This document shows positions 2,593-64,000 of a stretch of 64,000 bases of DNA, one piece after another. Each line of letters opens with the position of its first letter. The stretch's first letter is position 1. Source of the stretch: Eledone cirrhosa (lineage: Eukaryota). The position numbers and the translations under genes are program-made. Location of the stretch: NCBI GenBank assembly GCA_964016885.1, contig OZ024765.1, positions 4,092,001 to 4,156,000 of the forward strand. The letters are read 5' to 3'. The notes beneath the pieces were generated by a model. It did not search any database. It had not been told where the DNA came from and saw only the letters and a list, made by a program, of their open reading frames with translations.

Positions 2593-2710
<118 letters not shown>

Positions 2711-2867
2711 TATTGGTGCTCTGAAATAGTGATGTATACATGAATGTATGTATAATATATTTGGCAATATACTGTATGTTTAATTAAAAACATTTAGAAG
2801 ACTATTCGCTATTAGTTTTAAAGTAGTGACTAAGTCACTAACTTATTCTCAGTAAAAACAAGGGGGA

Positions 2868-2913
2868 GTGATAGACAGTCTGTTTCTCGCTTGTTACTGT
2901 TTATCAAGACCAC
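2868..2913 (-). ncRNA. Degenerate U3-A8 hammerhead motif in predicted XPD 3'UTR
   Basis: GUGGUC-UUGAUAA-ACAGU aaca AGCGA-GAAA-CAGACUG-UC^UAUCAC; stem II is mismatched. Confidence 0.45.
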
Positions 2914-3306
2914 TCACTCTCTTGCCTCTGCCGAGGGTTATAGAAGCTGGATTCTTATAGAATTCCAGCAATATTTAAGAGTTGATTAGTCACTACTTTA
3001 AAACTCATAGAGAATGGTCTTCAAAGTGTTTGTTCCTAAGTTGATATCCCTGAGGAATTCTTGCTGGCAATGGAGTCATTTATATTCTGAATAACTCTGG
3101 TGAGATGGACAGACACACTGACAGATGGTGGTTGTGGAGCTGATAGTGATGATGGTGGTGGTGTGGCTGATAGTGATGGTGGTGGGGCTGATAGTGATGA
3201 TGATGGTGGTAATGATAGTGATAGTGGTGGTGGTGGTTGTAGGGCTGGTAGTGATGATGGTGGTGGTGGTAGTGATGGTGGCAGGTATGTCAAAAAAACA
3301 CATTTT

Positions 3307-45443
<42,137 letters not shown>

Positions 45444-45915: not shown

Positions 45916-48318
45916 AGATGAAAACTAGGAGTAGACAAATGGCTTGTGAGAATAGTAGAAGCCGTGTATAGAAGAACAGTCAGCAAAGTCAGAATTAAAA
46001 ATGACTATAACGAAGAATTTAGCATGCAAGTTGGTGTCCATCAGGGCTCAATTCTTAGCCCTCTCCTGTTTATTATCATTCTGCAGGCAATAACGGAGGA
46101 GTTTAAGACTGGATACCCATGGGAACTTCTCTATACAGATGACATAACCCTTATAGTCAGATCTATAGCTGAATTAGAGATGAAATTCCAAACGTGGAAG
46201 CACAGCCTAGACCCTAAAGGTTTTAAAGTCAACCTGGCAAAGACTGAAGTACTAGTAAGTAGGAAGGTTAACAGGGCTCAGATCTCCTCTAGGAAATAGC
46301 CCTCCTCTGTGTGCAGAAAAAGACTAGGTAGAGATTCTATTCTATGCCCCAAATGTAAGCAATGGGTACACAAGAGATGTAGTGGGATCTCAGGCAAGCT
46401 AACAAAGAACGTAGATTTTACATGTGGCCAGTGCACAGGGGCAGTAAGTAGCAAGAGCTCTCAGGTTACAATCACCTTCAAATGCTCAGAGGGCTCAGTA
46501 GCAGTGGTAGATAGTTTATGTTACCTGGGTGACCAAATCAGTAGTGGGGGAATGTGTTCCAAAAGCACAGTAACCAGAGTGGGATCGGGTTGGAGAAAGT
46601 TCAGGAAGCTACTACCGCTGCTAACTACAAAAGGTTTTTCCCTCAAAATGAAAGGCAGACTGTATGATGCATGTATCTGAACAACACTGTTGCATAGCAG
46701 TGAGATCTGGGCACTGTGTGCAAAGGACCTGCAACGATTGGAAAAAAATGAAGCCTCCATACTTGGATGGATGTACAATAGCAATATATGTGAACAGCAA
46801 AGCATAAATGAACTGGGCCTAACGAATTAAACGAATTAGGCCTAAGAGGGATCAGATGCAGTGTACAGGAGAGGATATTGTGATGGTATGGGCATGTGAT
46901 ATATATGAAGAACAACAGCTATATAAAAAGGTACAGAGCACTCAAAGTTGATGGTAGCCATGGAGTAGGCAGGCCTAGGAAGACTTGGGTTGAGGTGTTA
47001 AAAGCTGACTTTGCACAATTAACCCTCTCTAAGGTGATGACACATGACTGAGAACTCTGGCCCATTGCAGTACTTCAGAAGACCCACCCTCCCATATTCT
47101 CAAGCTGAGTTATATATTTAGTAGGCAACATCTTCCCCTACAATCTCTCCTCCCATACACCTCCCTTGCTGTAATCATCCCACCCCTATACCTATGTCCC
47201 CAATTCCCCAGGCATCTTTCCACTCCAACCCCCACCCAAGTCCCCATCCCATACCATAAAGTAATTGCCCCTGAATTACGACAAAAGCGCCCAGCCCACA
47301 CTGTAAAGTGGTCATGTAGGTGTTATGAGAAAAAGCACCCAGCCCACACTGTAAAGTGGCTGTGTAGGTGTTATGACAAAAAGCACCCAGCCCACACTGT
47401 AAAGTGGTTGTGAAGGTGTTATGACAAAAAGCACCCAGCCCACACTGTAAAGTGGTCATGTAGGTGTTATGACAAAAGGCACCCAGCCCACACTGTAAAG
47501 TGGCTGTGTAGGTGTTATGACAAAAAGCACCCAGCCCACACTGTAAAGTGGTTGTGAAGGTGTTATGACAAAAAGCACCCAGCCCACACTGTAAAGTGGT
47601 CATGTAGGTGTTATGACAAAAAGCACCCAGCCCACACTGTAAAGTGGCTGTGTAGGTGTTATGACAAAAAGTGTCCAGCCCACACTGTAAAGTGGTTGTG
47701 TAGGTGTTATGACAAAAAGCACCCAGTCCACACTATAAAGTGGTCATGTAGGTGTTATGACAAAAAGTGTCCAGCCCACACTGTAAAGTGGTCCTGTAGG
47801 TGTTATGACAAAAAGTGTCCAGCCCACACTGTAAAGTGGTTGTGTAGGTGTTATGACAAAAAGTGTCCAGCCCACACTGTAAAGTGGTCCTGTAGGTGTT
47901 ATGACAAAAAGTGTCCAGCCCACACTGTAAAGCGGTTGTGTAGGTGTTATGACAAAAAGTGTCCAGCCCACACTGTAAAGTGGTTGTGTAGGTGTTATGA
48001 CAAAAAGTGTCCAGCCCACACTGTAAAGTGGTCCTGTAGGTGTTATGACAAAAAGTGTCCAGCCCACACTGTAAAGTGGTTGTATAGGTGTTATGACAAA
48101 AAGTGTCCAGCCCACACTGTAAAGTGGTTGTGTAGGTGTTATGACAAAAAGCACACAGTACATATGGTGGCATTAGGAAGGGCTTCCATCTGTAGAAATC
48201 TAGCCAGAAACAGTTCCATATGAGTAAGACACGATCAATTGACCAAACTTGCCTCAAATGGGACAACCAGTCTAATCCATGCTAGTGTGGAAATTGGATG
48301 TTAAACGATGATGATGAT
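45916..48318 (+). mobile_element. 5'-truncated, frameshifted RTE-clade LINE with a 48-bp minisatellite in its 3'UTR
   Basis: RT motifs VGVHQGSILSPLLF and ELLYTDD, Cys-rich CxxCxQWVHKRC, GRPRKTW, then the repeat array and a (GAT)n tail. Confidence 0.88.
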
Positions 48319-55487: not shown

Positions 55488-56562
55488 ATCATCATCATCA
55501 TCGTTTTACGTACCCTTTTCTCTGCTTGCAAGGGTGGGATGGGGTCCTATTCAGCACAGCATCTCTCCACTTGTCACGGTCCTTCGTCATCTCCTCCGTG
55601 AGTTTCAGCGATCTGCGGTCTGCTCTCACCACCTCCGCCCATGTTTTACGTGGTCTACCTCTACTGCGTCTTCCTTCTACTGGGATTTCTTGGCACTTCT
55701 TTACCCAGCGGTCATCCTCCATGCGTATCACATGTCCATACCATCTCAGCCTTCTCTCCTGCACACCACAACTTATCCCTCTTATACCCAGTTTCTGTCT
55801 CAACACATCACATGTCCATACCATCTCAGCCTTCTCTCCTGCAAACCACAACTTATCCCTCTTATACCCAGTTTCTTTCTCAACACATCACATGTCCATA
55901 CCATCTCAGCCTTCTCTCCTGCACACCACAACTTATCCCTCTTATACCCAGTTTCTTTCTCAACTCATCACATGTCCATACCATCTCAGCCTTCTCTCCT
56001 GCACACCACAACTTATCCCTCTTATACCCAGTTTCTGTCTCAACACATCACATGTCCATACCATCTCAGCCTTCTCTCCTGCAAACCACAACTTATCCCT
56101 CTTATACCCAGTTTCTTTCTCAACACATCACATGTCCATACCATCTCAGCCTTCTCTCCTGCACACCACAACTTATCCCTCTTATACCCAGTTTCTTTCT
56201 CAACTCATCACATGTCCATACCATCTCAGCCTTCTCTCCCGCACACCACAACTTATCCCTCTTATACCCAGTTTCTGTCTCAACACATCACATGTCCATA
56301 CCATCTCAGCCTTCTCTCCCACACACCACAACTTATCCCCCTTATACCCAGTTTCTGTCTCAACACATCACATGTCCATACCATCTCAGCCTTCTCTCCT
56401 GCAAACCACAACTTATCCCTCTTATACCCAGTTTCTTTCTCAACTCGTCACATGTCCATACCATCTCAGCCTTCTCTCCCACACACCACAACTTATCCCT
56501 CTTATACCCAGTTTCTTTCTCAACTCGTCTATGCTTGGTCCTTCACATACATTGCCACTGCA
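55488..56562 (-). mobile_element. RTE 3' fragment with the same 80-bp tandem array (~10 units)
   Basis: Period 80 (55731, 55811, ...) with the same unit boundaries as at 16 kb. Confidence 0.85.
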
Positions 56563-56662
56563 CGTCCACTCTGTATGTTAAGGAGTTTAAACAGCTCACA
56601 ACCATAACTGGAATTCTATAAGAATCTAGCTTCTCTAACTCCCAGTAGAAGCGAAGGAGTGT

Positions 56663-56709
56663 GTAGTCTTGATAACCACTAACAAGTGAGAAACGGCCCC
56701 ATCAATTAC
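56663..56709 (+). ncRNA. Degenerate U3-A8 hammerhead motif
   Basis: GUAGUC-UUGAUAA-C CACU aaca AGUG A-GAAA-CGGCCCCA-UC-AAUUAC; homologous to the 310-nt monomer. Confidence 0.5.
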
Positions 56710-56872
56710 TCCCTTTTGCTTTTGCCGAGACAAGGTATCTGATGTTACTCACTACTTTAAAATTCACAGCGAATGGCCTTCAAAATGTTTTCAAATAAAC
56801 ATACAGTATATTATTAAATATACTATACATACATTCATACATACATCACTATTTCAGAGAACCAATACTACT

Positions 56873-57185: not shown

Positions 57186-57232
<47 letters not shown>

Positions 57233-57271
57233 TATATATGGTGAACTAACTGTTGTGGAACTACTTCTATC

Positions 57272-57317
<46 letters not shown>

Positions 57318-57356
57318 TATATATGGTGAACTAACTGTTGTGGAACTACTTCTATC

Positions 57357-57410
<54 letters not shown>

Positions 57411-57563
57411 ATAAATGCTCTGAAATAGCGATATATATGTGAATATAGACATAGAATATTCGAAAATATTCTGTATGTTTATAATAAACATTTTGAAGAC
57501 CTAATCGCTATAGAATAGAATACGTCACGTATTACAATTAGATTCTCGATAAAAGCAAGGGAA

Positions 57564-57606
57564 GTAATCTACGCGTTTCATTCTTGTTAGAAATCATCAG
57601 GACTAC
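57564..57606 (-). ncRNA. Minimal type-I hammerhead ribozyme (array copy 1)
   Basis: GUAGUC-CUGAUGA-U UUCU aaca AGAA U-GAAA-CGCG-UA^GAUUAC. Confidence 0.75.
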
Positions 57607-57873
57607 ATATCCAGTGCTTTTATCGAGAATGACACAGCTAGAGACTTATAGAATACTTAGCTGTGTACAGGAACTGGTTTGAAAGAGCGGTTGCCGGTCC
57701 GGCAGAAATTAGAAATTGGAATAAATGCTCTGAAATAGCGATATATATGTGAATATAGACATAGAATATTCGAAAATATTCTGTATGTTTATAATAAACA
57801 TTTTGAAGACCTAATCGCTATAGAATAGAATACGTCACGTATTACAATTAGATTCTCGATAAAAGCAAGGGAA

Positions 57874-57916
57874 GTAATCTACGCGTTTCATTCTTGTTAG
57901 AAATCATCAGGACTAC
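57874..57916 (-). ncRNA. Minimal type-I hammerhead ribozyme (array copy 2)
   Basis: Same motif, 310 nt from copy 1. Confidence 0.75.
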
Positions 57917-58367
57917 ATATCCAGTGCTTTTATCGAGAATGACACAGCTAGAGACTTATAGAATACTTAGCTGTGTACAGGAACTGGTTTGAAAGAGCGG
58001 TTGCCGGTCCGGCAGAAATTAGAAATTGGAATAAATGCTCTGAAATAGCGATATATATGTGAATATAGACATAGAATATTCGAAAATATTCTGTATGTTT
58101 ATAATAAACATTTTGAAGACCTAATCGCTATAGAATAGAATACGTCACGTATTACAATTAGATTCTCGATAAAAGCAAGGGAAGTAATCTACGAATATTT
58201 TCGAATATTCTATGTCTATATTCACATATATATCGCTATTTCAGAGCATTTATTCCAATTTCTAATTTCTGCCGGACCGGCAACCACTCTTTCAAACCAG
58301 TTCCTGTACACAGCTAAGTATTCTATAAGTCTCTAGCTGTGTCATTCTCGATAAAAGCACTGGATAT

Positions 58368-58410
58368 GTAGTCCTGATGATTTCTAACAAGAATGAAACG
58401 CGTAGATTAC
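58368..58410 (+). ncRNA. Minimal type-I hammerhead ribozyme (array copy 3)
   Basis: CTGATGA 58374-58380, GAAA 58395-58398, predicted cut after A58404. Confidence 0.75.
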
Positions 58411-58677
58411 TTCCCTTGCTTTTATCGAGAATCTAATTGTAATACGTGACGTATTCTATTCTATAGCGATTAGGTCTTCAAAATGTTTATTATAAACATA
58501 CAGAATATTTTCGAATATTCTATGTCTATATTCACATATATATCGCTATTTCAGAGCATTTATTCCAATTTCTAATTTCTGCCGGACCGGCAACCGCTCT
58601 TTCAAACCAGTTCCTGTACACAGCTAAGTATTCTATAAGTCTCTAGCTGTGTCATTCTCGATAAAAGCACTGGATAT

Positions 58678-58720
58678 GTAGTCCTGATGATTTCTAACAA
58701 GAATGAAACGCGTAGATTAC
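58678..58720 (+). ncRNA. Minimal type-I hammerhead ribozyme (array copy 4)
   Basis: Same motif. Confidence 0.75.
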
Positions 58721-58987
58721 TTCCCTTGCTTTTATCGAGAATCTAATTGTAATACGTGACGTATTCTATTCTATAGCGATTAGGTCTTCAAAATGTTTAT
58801 TATAAACATACAGAATATTTTCGAATATTCTATGTCTATATTCACATATATATCGCTATTTCAGAGCATTTATTCCAATTTCTAATTTCTGCCGGACCGG
58901 CAACCGCTCTTTCAAACCAGTTCCTGTACACAGCTAAGTATTCTATAAGTCTCTAGCTGTGTCATTCTCGATAAAAGCACTGGATAT

Positions 58988-59030
58988 GTAGTCCTGATGA
59001 TTTCTAACAAGAATGAAACGCGTAGATTAC
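58988..59030 (+). ncRNA. Minimal type-I hammerhead ribozyme (array copy 5)
   Basis: Same motif. Confidence 0.75.
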
Positions 59031-59209
59031 TTCCCTTGCTTTTATCGAGAATCTAATTGTAATACGTGACGTATTCTATTCTATAGCGATTAGGTCTTCA
59101 AAATGTTTATTATAAACATACAGAATATTTTCGAATATTCTATGTCTATATTCATATATATATATATATATAATATATAAGATCAAAAGATGGTTAAATG
59201 AGTTCCATA

Positions 59210-59599: not shown

Positions 59600-60270
59600 C
59601 GTGAACGGCAAAGCATAAACGAACTAAGGACAAAATTAGAAATAAGAGGGATCAGATGTTGTTTACTCGAGAGAAGGCTACGCTGGTATGGTCACGTGAT
59701 GCGCATGAAAGTCGATAGCTGTATAACGAAGTGCAGGGCAATAAAGATAGACGGTAGCCACGGAATAGGCAGACCTAGAAAAACCTGGGACGAGCTGATA
59801 AACTCCGACCTCACACACTTACACCTCTCCAAGACAATGTCACTGGACCGAGACCTTTGGCGGTACTCAGTAACAGAGAAGACCCGCCTTACCTAAATAC
59901 ATAGTAAAACCTACTACAGCCAGTAGGCATCTCTAACAAAATACCCCCCCCCCCCCATCCACACCACCCCGTTCTATGAAAAGTTATGTTGGTGCCACAC
60001 CATCCAGGCCGAAACAAATGAGATCGTGTAGGTGTCACGACAAAAAAACACACAGTCCACGCTGTAATGTGGCCGTGTAGGCAACACGGTAAAAACCTCC
60101 CAGACCCACACTGTAAATGTGGTTGGTGTTAGGAAGGGCATCCAACTGTAGAAAACCCGCCAGACAGTCCTATGCGAGCAAGACAATCACTCTTGCCTCA
60201 AGTGGGAATACCCCCGTCCAAACCCATGCAAGCGTGGAACACGGACGTTAAACGTTGATGATGATGATGA
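59600..60270 (+). mobile_element. RTE LINE 3' end (ORF2 end + 3'UTR with 49-bp modules)
   Basis: [12 protein letters not shown]...GRPRKTWDE...EKTRLT*, poly-C, repeat modules, (GAT)n; homologues at 43608-44055 and 53160-53437. Confidence 0.82.
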
Positions 60271-62934: not shown

Positions 62935-63274
62935 TGGGGATTTTGTTTTTTGTTTTTGTGCCTCTCCTTTGTTCTGTCCTACGCCATCTTGTTTTTGTGT
63001 GTGTTGTGTGCTTAGTTTGCGCATGTGTTACATCTGGGTGTCTGTGTATGTTTATATTCATTTATTTATTTGTTTATTTACAAGTTACTGGTTGGTTGTT
63101 TGTTCTATGTGTGTGTGTGTTTTCATTTTGTCCTTAATTGTAAGTTGTGATGTTGCTGTTCCTGTTGTTGTCCTCAGCTCGTAATGGACATTTATACGGA
63201 ACAGGCTGTTCCATATAACCATGTCCATTACAAGCTGAGGAGCCGCTAAGGTGAACTAACTGTTGTGTAACCAC

Positions 63275-63332
<58 letters not shown>

Positions 63333-63458
63333 GAATGTATGTATTGTATATTTAATAATATACTGTATGTTTATTTAAAAACATTTTGAAGGCCTTTTGC
63401 TATGAATTTAAGGTAGTGACTATATTCACATACCTAACTTCAGCAAAAATAAAGGGAA

Positions 63459-63503
63459 ATAACTGATGACTGTTTCTCAATGTTTAGCGGTTATCAAGGT
63501 TAT
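63459..63503 (-). ncRNA. Degenerate U3-A8 hammerhead motif
   Basis: AUAACC-UUGAUAA-CCGCU aaac AUUGA-GAAA-CAGUCA-UC-AGUUAU, inside a ~312-nt repeat unit. Confidence 0.42.
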
Positions 63504-64000
63504 AAACCCCTCTGATTTTGCTGTGAATTATAAAATAGAAGTTGGATTCTTATAGAATACCAATCATGTTTGTGAGCTGTTTAAACTCATTAACATACAG
63601 AGTGGATGCCAAGCCAGCAACGATTAGAAATTTGTGTTCGTGCTCTGAAATAGTAATGTATATTTAATAACATACTGTATGTTTATTTAAAAACATTTTG
63701 AAGGCCTTTCTCTTTACTTTTGCTGAAGCTAGGTATGTGACTAAAAGGTCTTTAAAATGTTTTAAAATAAACATACAGTATATTATTAAATATGCAATAC
63801 AGACATTCATATATACATCGCTATTTCAGAACAGCAACACATATATTAAGAAGATAAATAATACATACATTCTTATATACATCGCTATTTCAGAGCACCA
63901 ACACACATATATATATATTAAGAAGATAAGGTAGTATTCATTTTCTGTTGGTAAAAATCAAACTTGTGGAGTGATTATGGATCTGTTAATAAAGGGGCAA

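Follow-up and report, generated by a model that had tools for sequence, protein, structure and literature searches.

A Young Head-to-Head Insertion of a Hammerhead-Bearing 310-nt Repeat in Eledone cirrhosa, with an Inversion Point Close to the Predicted Ribozyme Cut

Introduction

Does the point at which a repeat array turns into its own inverted copy record the cut of the ribozyme that the repeat carries? The question is raised by an insertion in the DNA of Eledone cirrhosa, lying in a stretch of 64,000 nt of contig OZ024765.1 (hereafter, the window), where two arms of the same repeat meet close to the predicted cleavage site of a hammerhead. The initial annotation of this DNA had proposed that reverse transcription reached a ribozyme-generated RNA 5′ end and switched template there, so that the junction would be a genomic footprint of self-cleavage in vivo. 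According to the available text of Cervera 2014 (PMC4209133), in vivo evidence for hammerhead cutting during transposition is absent, and in Frangieh 2024 (PMC11167929) hammerhead cleavage was dispensable in vitro. Among the papers listed in literature searches, no study was found that maps the inversion points of PLEs (Penelope-like elements) or retrozymes against the hammerhead cut. The main text of Cervera and de la Peña 2020 (PMC7229834) does not mention truncation, and its passages containing “invert” concern invertebrates; insertion junctions are not treated in the available text of Li, Clavereau and Pollet 2026 (10.64898/2026.07.22.740005).

Results

The 310-nt Unit and Its Predicted Hammerhead

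Repeat analysis of the insertion gave a period of 310 nt for both arms, a correction to the initial annotation. Unit positions are numbered from the first nucleotide 3′ of the predicted hammerhead cut (position 1). The GC content of the unit is 34% and, as a circle, it folds with a z-score of −4.2. The sequence criteria used for non-LTR retrozymes were tandem units of 150–450 bp, low GC, two or more successive units each with a complete type I hammerhead, and non-coding character. All of them were found here: the low-GC units are in tandem, five complete type I hammerheads lie on consecutive 310-nt units within the insertion, and no ORF of at least 120 aa was found across it. Judged by these sequence features, the 310-nt repeat is a non-coding non-LTR retrozyme with a predicted type I hammerhead. 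A two-polarity, viroid-like identity was dropped because no hammerhead core was found in the antisense strand of the unit.

The hammerhead is composed of a 6-bp stem I, CUGAUGA, a 4-bp stem II under a U-U pair, GAAA and the cleavage triplet GUA, with a stem III of 1 bp plus a palindromic loop, and it is predicted to cut between GUA and the following G. All the elements of a type I core are present (CUGANGA plus GAAA, an NUH triplet, stems I and II, and a short palindromic helix III), and the hammerhead and cut position predicted earlier were both recovered. The Rfam model Hammerhead_HH9 aligned to the unit in the same register with 19.2 bits and an E-value of 0.041, below its gathering score of 52. 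The Rfam scan of the 64-kb window yielded no match at the gathering level, and AT-repeat miRNA noise was found among the best 150 of its 165 sub-threshold matches.

The hammerhead helices are retained in three older relatives of the unit within the window (relics A, B and C, see below). Considering four related sequences, with the structure drawn from the young unit, two-sided changes occurred in 9 of 28 pairs, a level reached by 7 of 500 shuffles, and slid controls gave 0–3 such pairs. The covarying pairs include C3-G8 of the young unit, which is U3-A8 in the three relics, a core variant known from Schistosoma PLEs. The U-U pair at the base of stem II has a counterpart in axolotl HHR_Amex2, and it becomes A-U through the sole difference found in the 310 nt of the copy in sequencing run X10.

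The active fold of the monomer was computed at −25.2 kcal/mol versus an MFE of −31.9 kcal/mol, a cost of about 7 kcal/mol, and the self-duplex of the stem-III palindrome at −9.5 kcal/mol. These modelled energies suggest that cleavage may be dimer-dependent, a behaviour expected of metazoan hammerheads of the dimer type (PMC4209133). The bare 43-nt motif has an MFE of −4.6 kcal/mol, and together with the flanking 16-bp stem it reaches −32.7 kcal/mol (z-score −4.5); the filter for active hammerheads used by Li et al. (10.64898/2026.07.22.740005) is an MFE < −5 kcal/mol.

Anatomy of the Insertion

The left arm (57405..58193, minus strand) is 789 nt long and comprises unit positions −4 to −1, two full units and then positions 1–165, with zero mismatches to the 310-nt unit along its whole length. 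It contains two intact hammerheads, both on the minus strand, at 57874..57916 (predicted cut 57880/57879) and 57564..57606 (57570/57569), and at 58184..58193 a partial third one made of the 3′ strand of stem I and half of the stem-III palindrome (minus strand, predicted cut 58190/58189). The right arm (58193..59154, plus strand) is 962 nt long and comprises unit positions 99–310, two full units and then positions 1–130; it extends to unit position 139, at 59163, when one mismatch and an overlap with the AT tract are allowed. Its three hammerheads, on the plus strand, lie at 58368..58410 (predicted cut 58404/58405), 58678..58720 (58714/58715) and 58988..59030 (59024/59025). The only internal difference between units is a G>A substitution at a CpG of the right arm (58286, plus strand, unit position 192), and with this single CpG transition the insertion can be taken as very young. 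The change likely arose after insertion; the contigs from runs X10 and X4 have the common letter at the matching position.

The arms meet at their 5′ ends, that is head-to-head, and the G at 58193 is common to both. The sequence GTAATC-TACG at 58184–58193, followed by a quasi-palindrome, was confirmed. The earlier description of arms of about 690 bp around a loop of about 100 nt holds for one register only, with arms of 692 nt (57400–58091 and 58193–58884) lying 101 nt apart. The repeat search gave an alternative register with arms of 763 nt each, 207 nt apart, and the 690/100 geometry omits the final 275 nt of the right arm, since the insertion continues to 59154.

At the outer side, the arms end at unit positions 165 and 130, 35 nt apart (26 nt with the right arm extended to 59163), and the 35-nt 3′ extension or tail (57405..57439, minus strand, unit positions 131–165) occurs in the left arm only. 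An (AT)n target tract adjoins the left arm (57363..57404) and another one the right arm (59155..59179); outside them, the unique flanks are unrelated to each other and not mirrored. No target-site duplication is readable, because both flanks are (AT)n.

A motif of about 36 nt followed by (AT)n was also observed at 57240–57275, 57325–57360, 63250–63280 and 31655–31678 (minus strand), adjoining three different hammerhead insertions; at 57189–57406 the motif is duplicated as an 85-nt tandem. The copies at 57240 and 57325 are not part of the 310-nt unit, and the motif may come from the tail of another, third PLE family that supplies targets.

Position of the Junction Relative to the Predicted Cut

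As the initial annotation had described, the left arm passes the predicted minus-strand cut (58190/58189) by 3 nt, or by 4 nt counting the shared G at 58193, and ends inside stem III. The breakpoint falls halfway through the stem-III palindrome. The interpretation placed on this position fared otherwise. A template cleaved by the ribozyme would end at +1. The left arm contains TAC(G) from upstream of the cut, and the chance of such a match to the uncleaved continuation is 0.019 for TAC and 0.003 for TACG. Because the left arm extends past +1 as in the uncleaved unit, a stop of the reverse transcriptase (RT) at a ribozyme-made 5′ end, followed by template switching, is unsupported. Two intact hammerhead sites were crossed by the left arm before stopping and three by the right arm, among them the same-register site at 58404. 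With this overshoot, the crossing of two intact sites and a fold-back geometry that fails, the junction could not be upheld as a footprint of in vivo self-cleavage. A ribozyme-defined 5′ junction like that of R2 was not found either, the left end being at −3/−4.

In a 310-nt unit, one of two 5′ ends would fall within about 4 nt of the cut with a chance of 5–6%, and the site was picked after the fact, so the coincidence of junction and cut is modest when taken alone. TAC is also found one base upstream of the right-arm start in the right-arm template, and the junction can be rewritten with the left arm ending at +1 and the right arm beginning four bases further upstream, one base having been lost. 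TAC at the junction is more simply seen as microhomology between two cDNA ends than as a cleaved end plus a deletion. Speaking against a microhomology join, 1 nt or less of microhomology is expected in 82% of random head-to-head joins. Both 5′ ends fall at palindromic features, the left one at the centre of the stem-III palindrome and the right one at the base of an 8-bp hairpin with a 4-nt loop (58193..58211, plus strand, unit positions 98–117). This observation is weak, because palindromic or hairpin features occupy 37% of the unit. The junction near the cut may hint at an effect of the ribozyme, without recording the cut itself.

Other Hammerhead Copies in the Window

Copies of two hammerhead families were collected in the window with nhmmer and BLAST. 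Among the older relatives of the 310-nt unit, relic C (63323..63850) is a head-to-head inversion with TTT at the junction (63707–63709); its right arm has a 5′ end at +6 (to +9), and its left arm begins on a short palindrome, at +68. Like the young insertion, it has one long and one short 3′ end; in relics A and B the 3′ end is the long one. Relic A (2706..3031) has an inversion near 2986, and its 5′ ends (about −113 and +41) both lie away from the cut. Relic B (56565..56872, plus strand) has its 5′ end at about −139. Short palindromes or hairpins occur at or near a junction end in all three inversions of the window. Other observations around the relics were a duplicated 3′ end near 63854–63908 in relic C, a 71-nt near-perfect inverted repeat at 63171–63241 just upstream of the relic C flank motif, and a short inverted stretch directly upstream of relic B, near 56539–56552.

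The second family comprises a copy at 42219..42303 (plus strand), 5′-truncated at −7 inside the stem-III palindrome, and copies at 12692–12716 and 31566–31590 (both minus strand); its 5′ ends are at −46 or beyond, −47 and −7. The family displays a minimal stem III and ends in (AT)n about 80–100 nt past the cut, and one copy has GUU in place of GUA.

Adding the ends of the young insertion (−4 and +99), ten 5′ ends were available in the window, with none at +1 and three within −7 to +6, an interval fixed after the data had been seen; the relic ends are approximate, as they come from decayed copies. Outside the discovery insertion, two of the eight ends fall within −7 to +6. For these 2/8, p is 0.048 under a uniform 310-nt null and 0.10–0.34 when the null favours short truncations. 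Counting the inversion ends only, one or more of four near the cut has p 0.17. The end of relic C is compatible with trimming of a cleaved end, those at −4 and −7 run past the cut into stem III, and relic A contradicts any rule. The bias of 5′ ends towards the ribozyme in this window is a lead, not a result.

Occurrence of the Unit in Sequencing Runs and Collections

In a word search of sequencing runs, 20 of the 24 runs listed carry 0.59–0.78 of the 37 query words. These 20 runs with a near-identical unit bear 17 organism labels and belong to 16 studies, and one of them has only 4 million letters; no RNA runs were found among the unit-holding runs listed. The presence of the unit across many runs could possibly be due to carry-over, DNA of prey or cobionts, related species, or an abundant circle. 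Reads of four of the listed runs were placed on one unit. The Hi-C runs X21 and X22 (12,836,656 records each) gave zero reads, which carries no weight as a test. Runs X10 and X4, of unrecorded type, each gave one isolated contig of 340 nt that closes to 310 nt, with depths of 34 and 10 and with 1 and 0 differences, respectively, in which no strand-change joint, loose end or flank was seen. Such closed contigs would be produced by a tandem array as well as by a circle, and because of them the unit can be considered real, in tandem or circular form, elsewhere. Concerning the junction words, no listed run clearly has them by this indirect measure (best share 0.78, versus 0.82 of the query made up by unit-only 31-mers). 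Pattern scans of metagenome, viral and genome contig collections gave zero loci.

Other Repeats in the Window

The window is repeat-rich DNA with a GC content of 21–49% per 2-kb bin and numerous (AT)n tracts and minisatellites. The latter include arrays at 17340–21371 and 23362–28349 (77/88-nt units, about 48 copies, and 42-nt units, about 121 copies; GC skew up to 1.0), an 80-nt minisatellite present at 15953–16515 and 55686–56568, 39 kb apart, in opposite orientation and 95–96% identical, and a 48–49-nt family found in both orientations (6946–7159, 7477–7668, 13959–14613, 33272–33477, 33900–34898 and 47276–48152). A LINE fragment at 45922–46677 (plus strand) encodes RVT_1 (E-value 4.6e-12) followed by a PHD finger (E-value 1.1e-6). 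Another one at 59600–59893 (plus strand), without Pfam match, is presumably an RTE-type C-terminus, by resemblance.

Discussion

Probable Insertion by a Penelope-Like Enzyme

The origin of the inversion that we favour, as somewhat more probable than the other readings together, is that a non-LTR retrozyme was inserted in trans by a Penelope-like RT-endonuclease and that two separately primed cDNAs were joined at microhomology. The enzyme would nick both target strands in (AT)n, and the cDNAs would start at two template sites, around unit position 165 and positions 130–139, on a circular or multimeric RNA. Each cDNA would then have crossed two or three intact ribozyme sites of its template. The join between the two ends would use either the shared G or TAC-G, in the latter case with 1 nt bulged out. 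The left breakpoint would reflect microhomology plus the stem-III palindrome, or chance, rather than a cleaved RNA end.

Three hallmarks of PLE insertions are found at the locus: an inverted, 5′-truncated head-to-head copy, a tail of 30–40 bp and an AT-rich or (TA)n target. The proposal of the initial annotation that a Penelope-type inverted truncated copy was made at insertion is supported by the head-to-head arms, the tail and the (AT)n target. In PLEs, the 30–40-bp tail is often at one end only, beside an inverted 5′-truncated copy, and such copies also occur in Naiad PLEs, which are devoid of canonical hammerheads (PMC8557442). The Anolis PAc protein nicks and extends both strands in vitro and prefers AT-rich DNA; its RT starts at two adjacent sites, the tail being the stretch between them, and insertion is unchanged in vitro with hammerhead mutants (PMC11167929). 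Palindromes have been reported at the inverted junctions of rotifer Penelopes (PMC3846280). As a counterpoint, the three of ten 5′ ends lying within −7 to +6 of the predicted cut exceed the uniform null.

No ORF with RT plus GIY-YIG was found in the insertion or among the 11 window ORFs scanned, and the sole RT fragment in those ORFs (45922–46296) is of LINE type. The insertion is not an autonomous PLE.

Alternative Explanations

A first alternative keeps the dual-primed insertion and adds a bias of the cDNA ends towards the ribozyme, with the RT stalling or dropping off a few nt from the cut. The cause might be a ligation scar in circular RNA, an end-to-end jump between cleaved monomers, after which the RT would stop, or the stem-III duplex formed between the two molecules of a hammerhead dimer, the palindrome having a favourable self-duplex energy. 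The ends near the cut span two families (−4 in the discovery insertion, +6 to +9 in relic C, and −7 at 42219), and in both tailed inversions, the young one and relic C, it is the tail-bearing arm that ends near the cut. Set against this, seven of the ten ends lie elsewhere, the tail-bearing arm of relic A ends at −113, and the statistics weaken under short-truncation nulls and for inversion ends alone, with an interval chosen post hoc and relic ends taken from decayed copies. Such a bias seems rather unlikely.

That the RT ran to a hammerhead-cleaved 5′ end at +1 and then switched template, leaving a record of in vivo self-cleavage, is improbable. The junction can indeed be written as a +1 end followed by TAC from the right-arm template and a 1-nt deletion, the right arm of relic C fits a cleaved end trimmed to the TTT microhomology, and the ribozyme cut of R2 defines its 5′ junction (PMC11331408). 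But the reading needs a chance match of 4 nt to the uncleaved continuation as well as the deletion; none of the ten ends is at +1 and two overshoot; and intact sites were crossed by both arms, including the same-register one. In addition, a single RT fold-back cannot yield two arms that measure 789 and 962 nt and differ in their 3′ ends, and with PAc uncleaved RNA is the dominant substrate and zero RNA-seq reads start or end at the cut (PMC11167929).

A very improbable origin is a one-strand fold-back by hairpin self-priming, or a replication template switch in an already existing tandem array. The right arm does start at the base of a perfect hairpin and the left arm, taken in the −4 register, is an exact mirror of the right arm's distal 754 nt with 35 nt added; self-priming has moreover been proposed for Penelope on antisense templates, from junction palindromes (PMC3846280). 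The template is lacking either way, being 275 nt short or missing the 35-nt tail, and one would hardly expect a DNA-level rearrangement to stop at the long 3′ site usual in the family. A single snap-back was rejected because of the arm lengths, the right arm running 275 nt beyond the mirror and the 35-nt tail remaining.

Finally, a sequencing or assembly artefact from a fold-back read is hardly credible, and was rejected because the outer flanks are unrelated and unmirrored; the loop is asymmetric, the arms stop at the two 3′ ends also found in the older relatives and a head-to-head arrangement recurs in two decayed copies, even if the arms are near-perfect, the junction was not seen in the two contig runs containing the unit and the best word share among the listed runs does not exceed that from the unit-only 31-mers.

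Comparison with Known Systems

The repeat resembles metazoan non-LTR retrozymes (PMC7229834; 10.64898/2026.07.22.740005) in its tandem monomers of about 300 bp, with a GC content of 34%, one type I hammerhead per unit and no ORF. It differs from the known ones in being a new sequence family and in having a multimer that lies here as a head-to-head pair of arms bearing a PLE tail. With EN+ PLEs (PMC3846280; PMC8557442; PMC4209133; PMC11167929), it shares partial tandems, an inverted 5′-truncated head-to-head copy, a tail at one end, targets that are AT-rich or (TA)n, an inverted junction with palindromes and a hammerhead with a short palindromic helix III, but the insertion has no RT or GIY-YIG ORF and both arms are multimers of a non-coding unit. 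As in the twin or dual priming of L1 (PMC2837659), two nicks would prime cDNAs that meet head-to-head with little or no microhomology; poly(A) is absent here and the enzyme class is different. The arms each begin in the terminal unit and have sequence in common, an arrangement closer to dual priming (PMC2837659). The 5′ HDV-like ribozyme of R2 (PMC11331408) is a precedent for a cut that fixes both the template and the genomic 5′ junction. In R2 the junction is at the cut, whereas here it overshoots the cut and the ribozyme is internal and repeated.

Significance for Retrozymes and Penelope-Like Elements

Cervera 2020 (PMC7229834) and the scenario of Li 2026 (10.64898/2026.07.22.740005) differ on whether retrozyme arrays are multimeric when they are inserted or expand afterwards. 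The near-identical multimers in both arms, together with the PLE tail and the (AT)n target, suggest that Penelope machinery produced the multimer at this locus during insertion itself.

For the question whether the hammerheads of PLEs and retrozymes cut in vivo during transposition, the locus offers a cheap genome-wide test. We advance, quite tentatively, that the 5′ ends and inversion points of retrozymes might pile up near the cut, with the Penelope RT stalling at the cleavage/ligation site or at the dimer helix. If this were true, genomes would hold a countable record of germ-line hammerhead processing, and the side of the peak (trimmed, on the + side, versus overshooting, on the − side) would separate cleaved linear templates from re-ligated circles.
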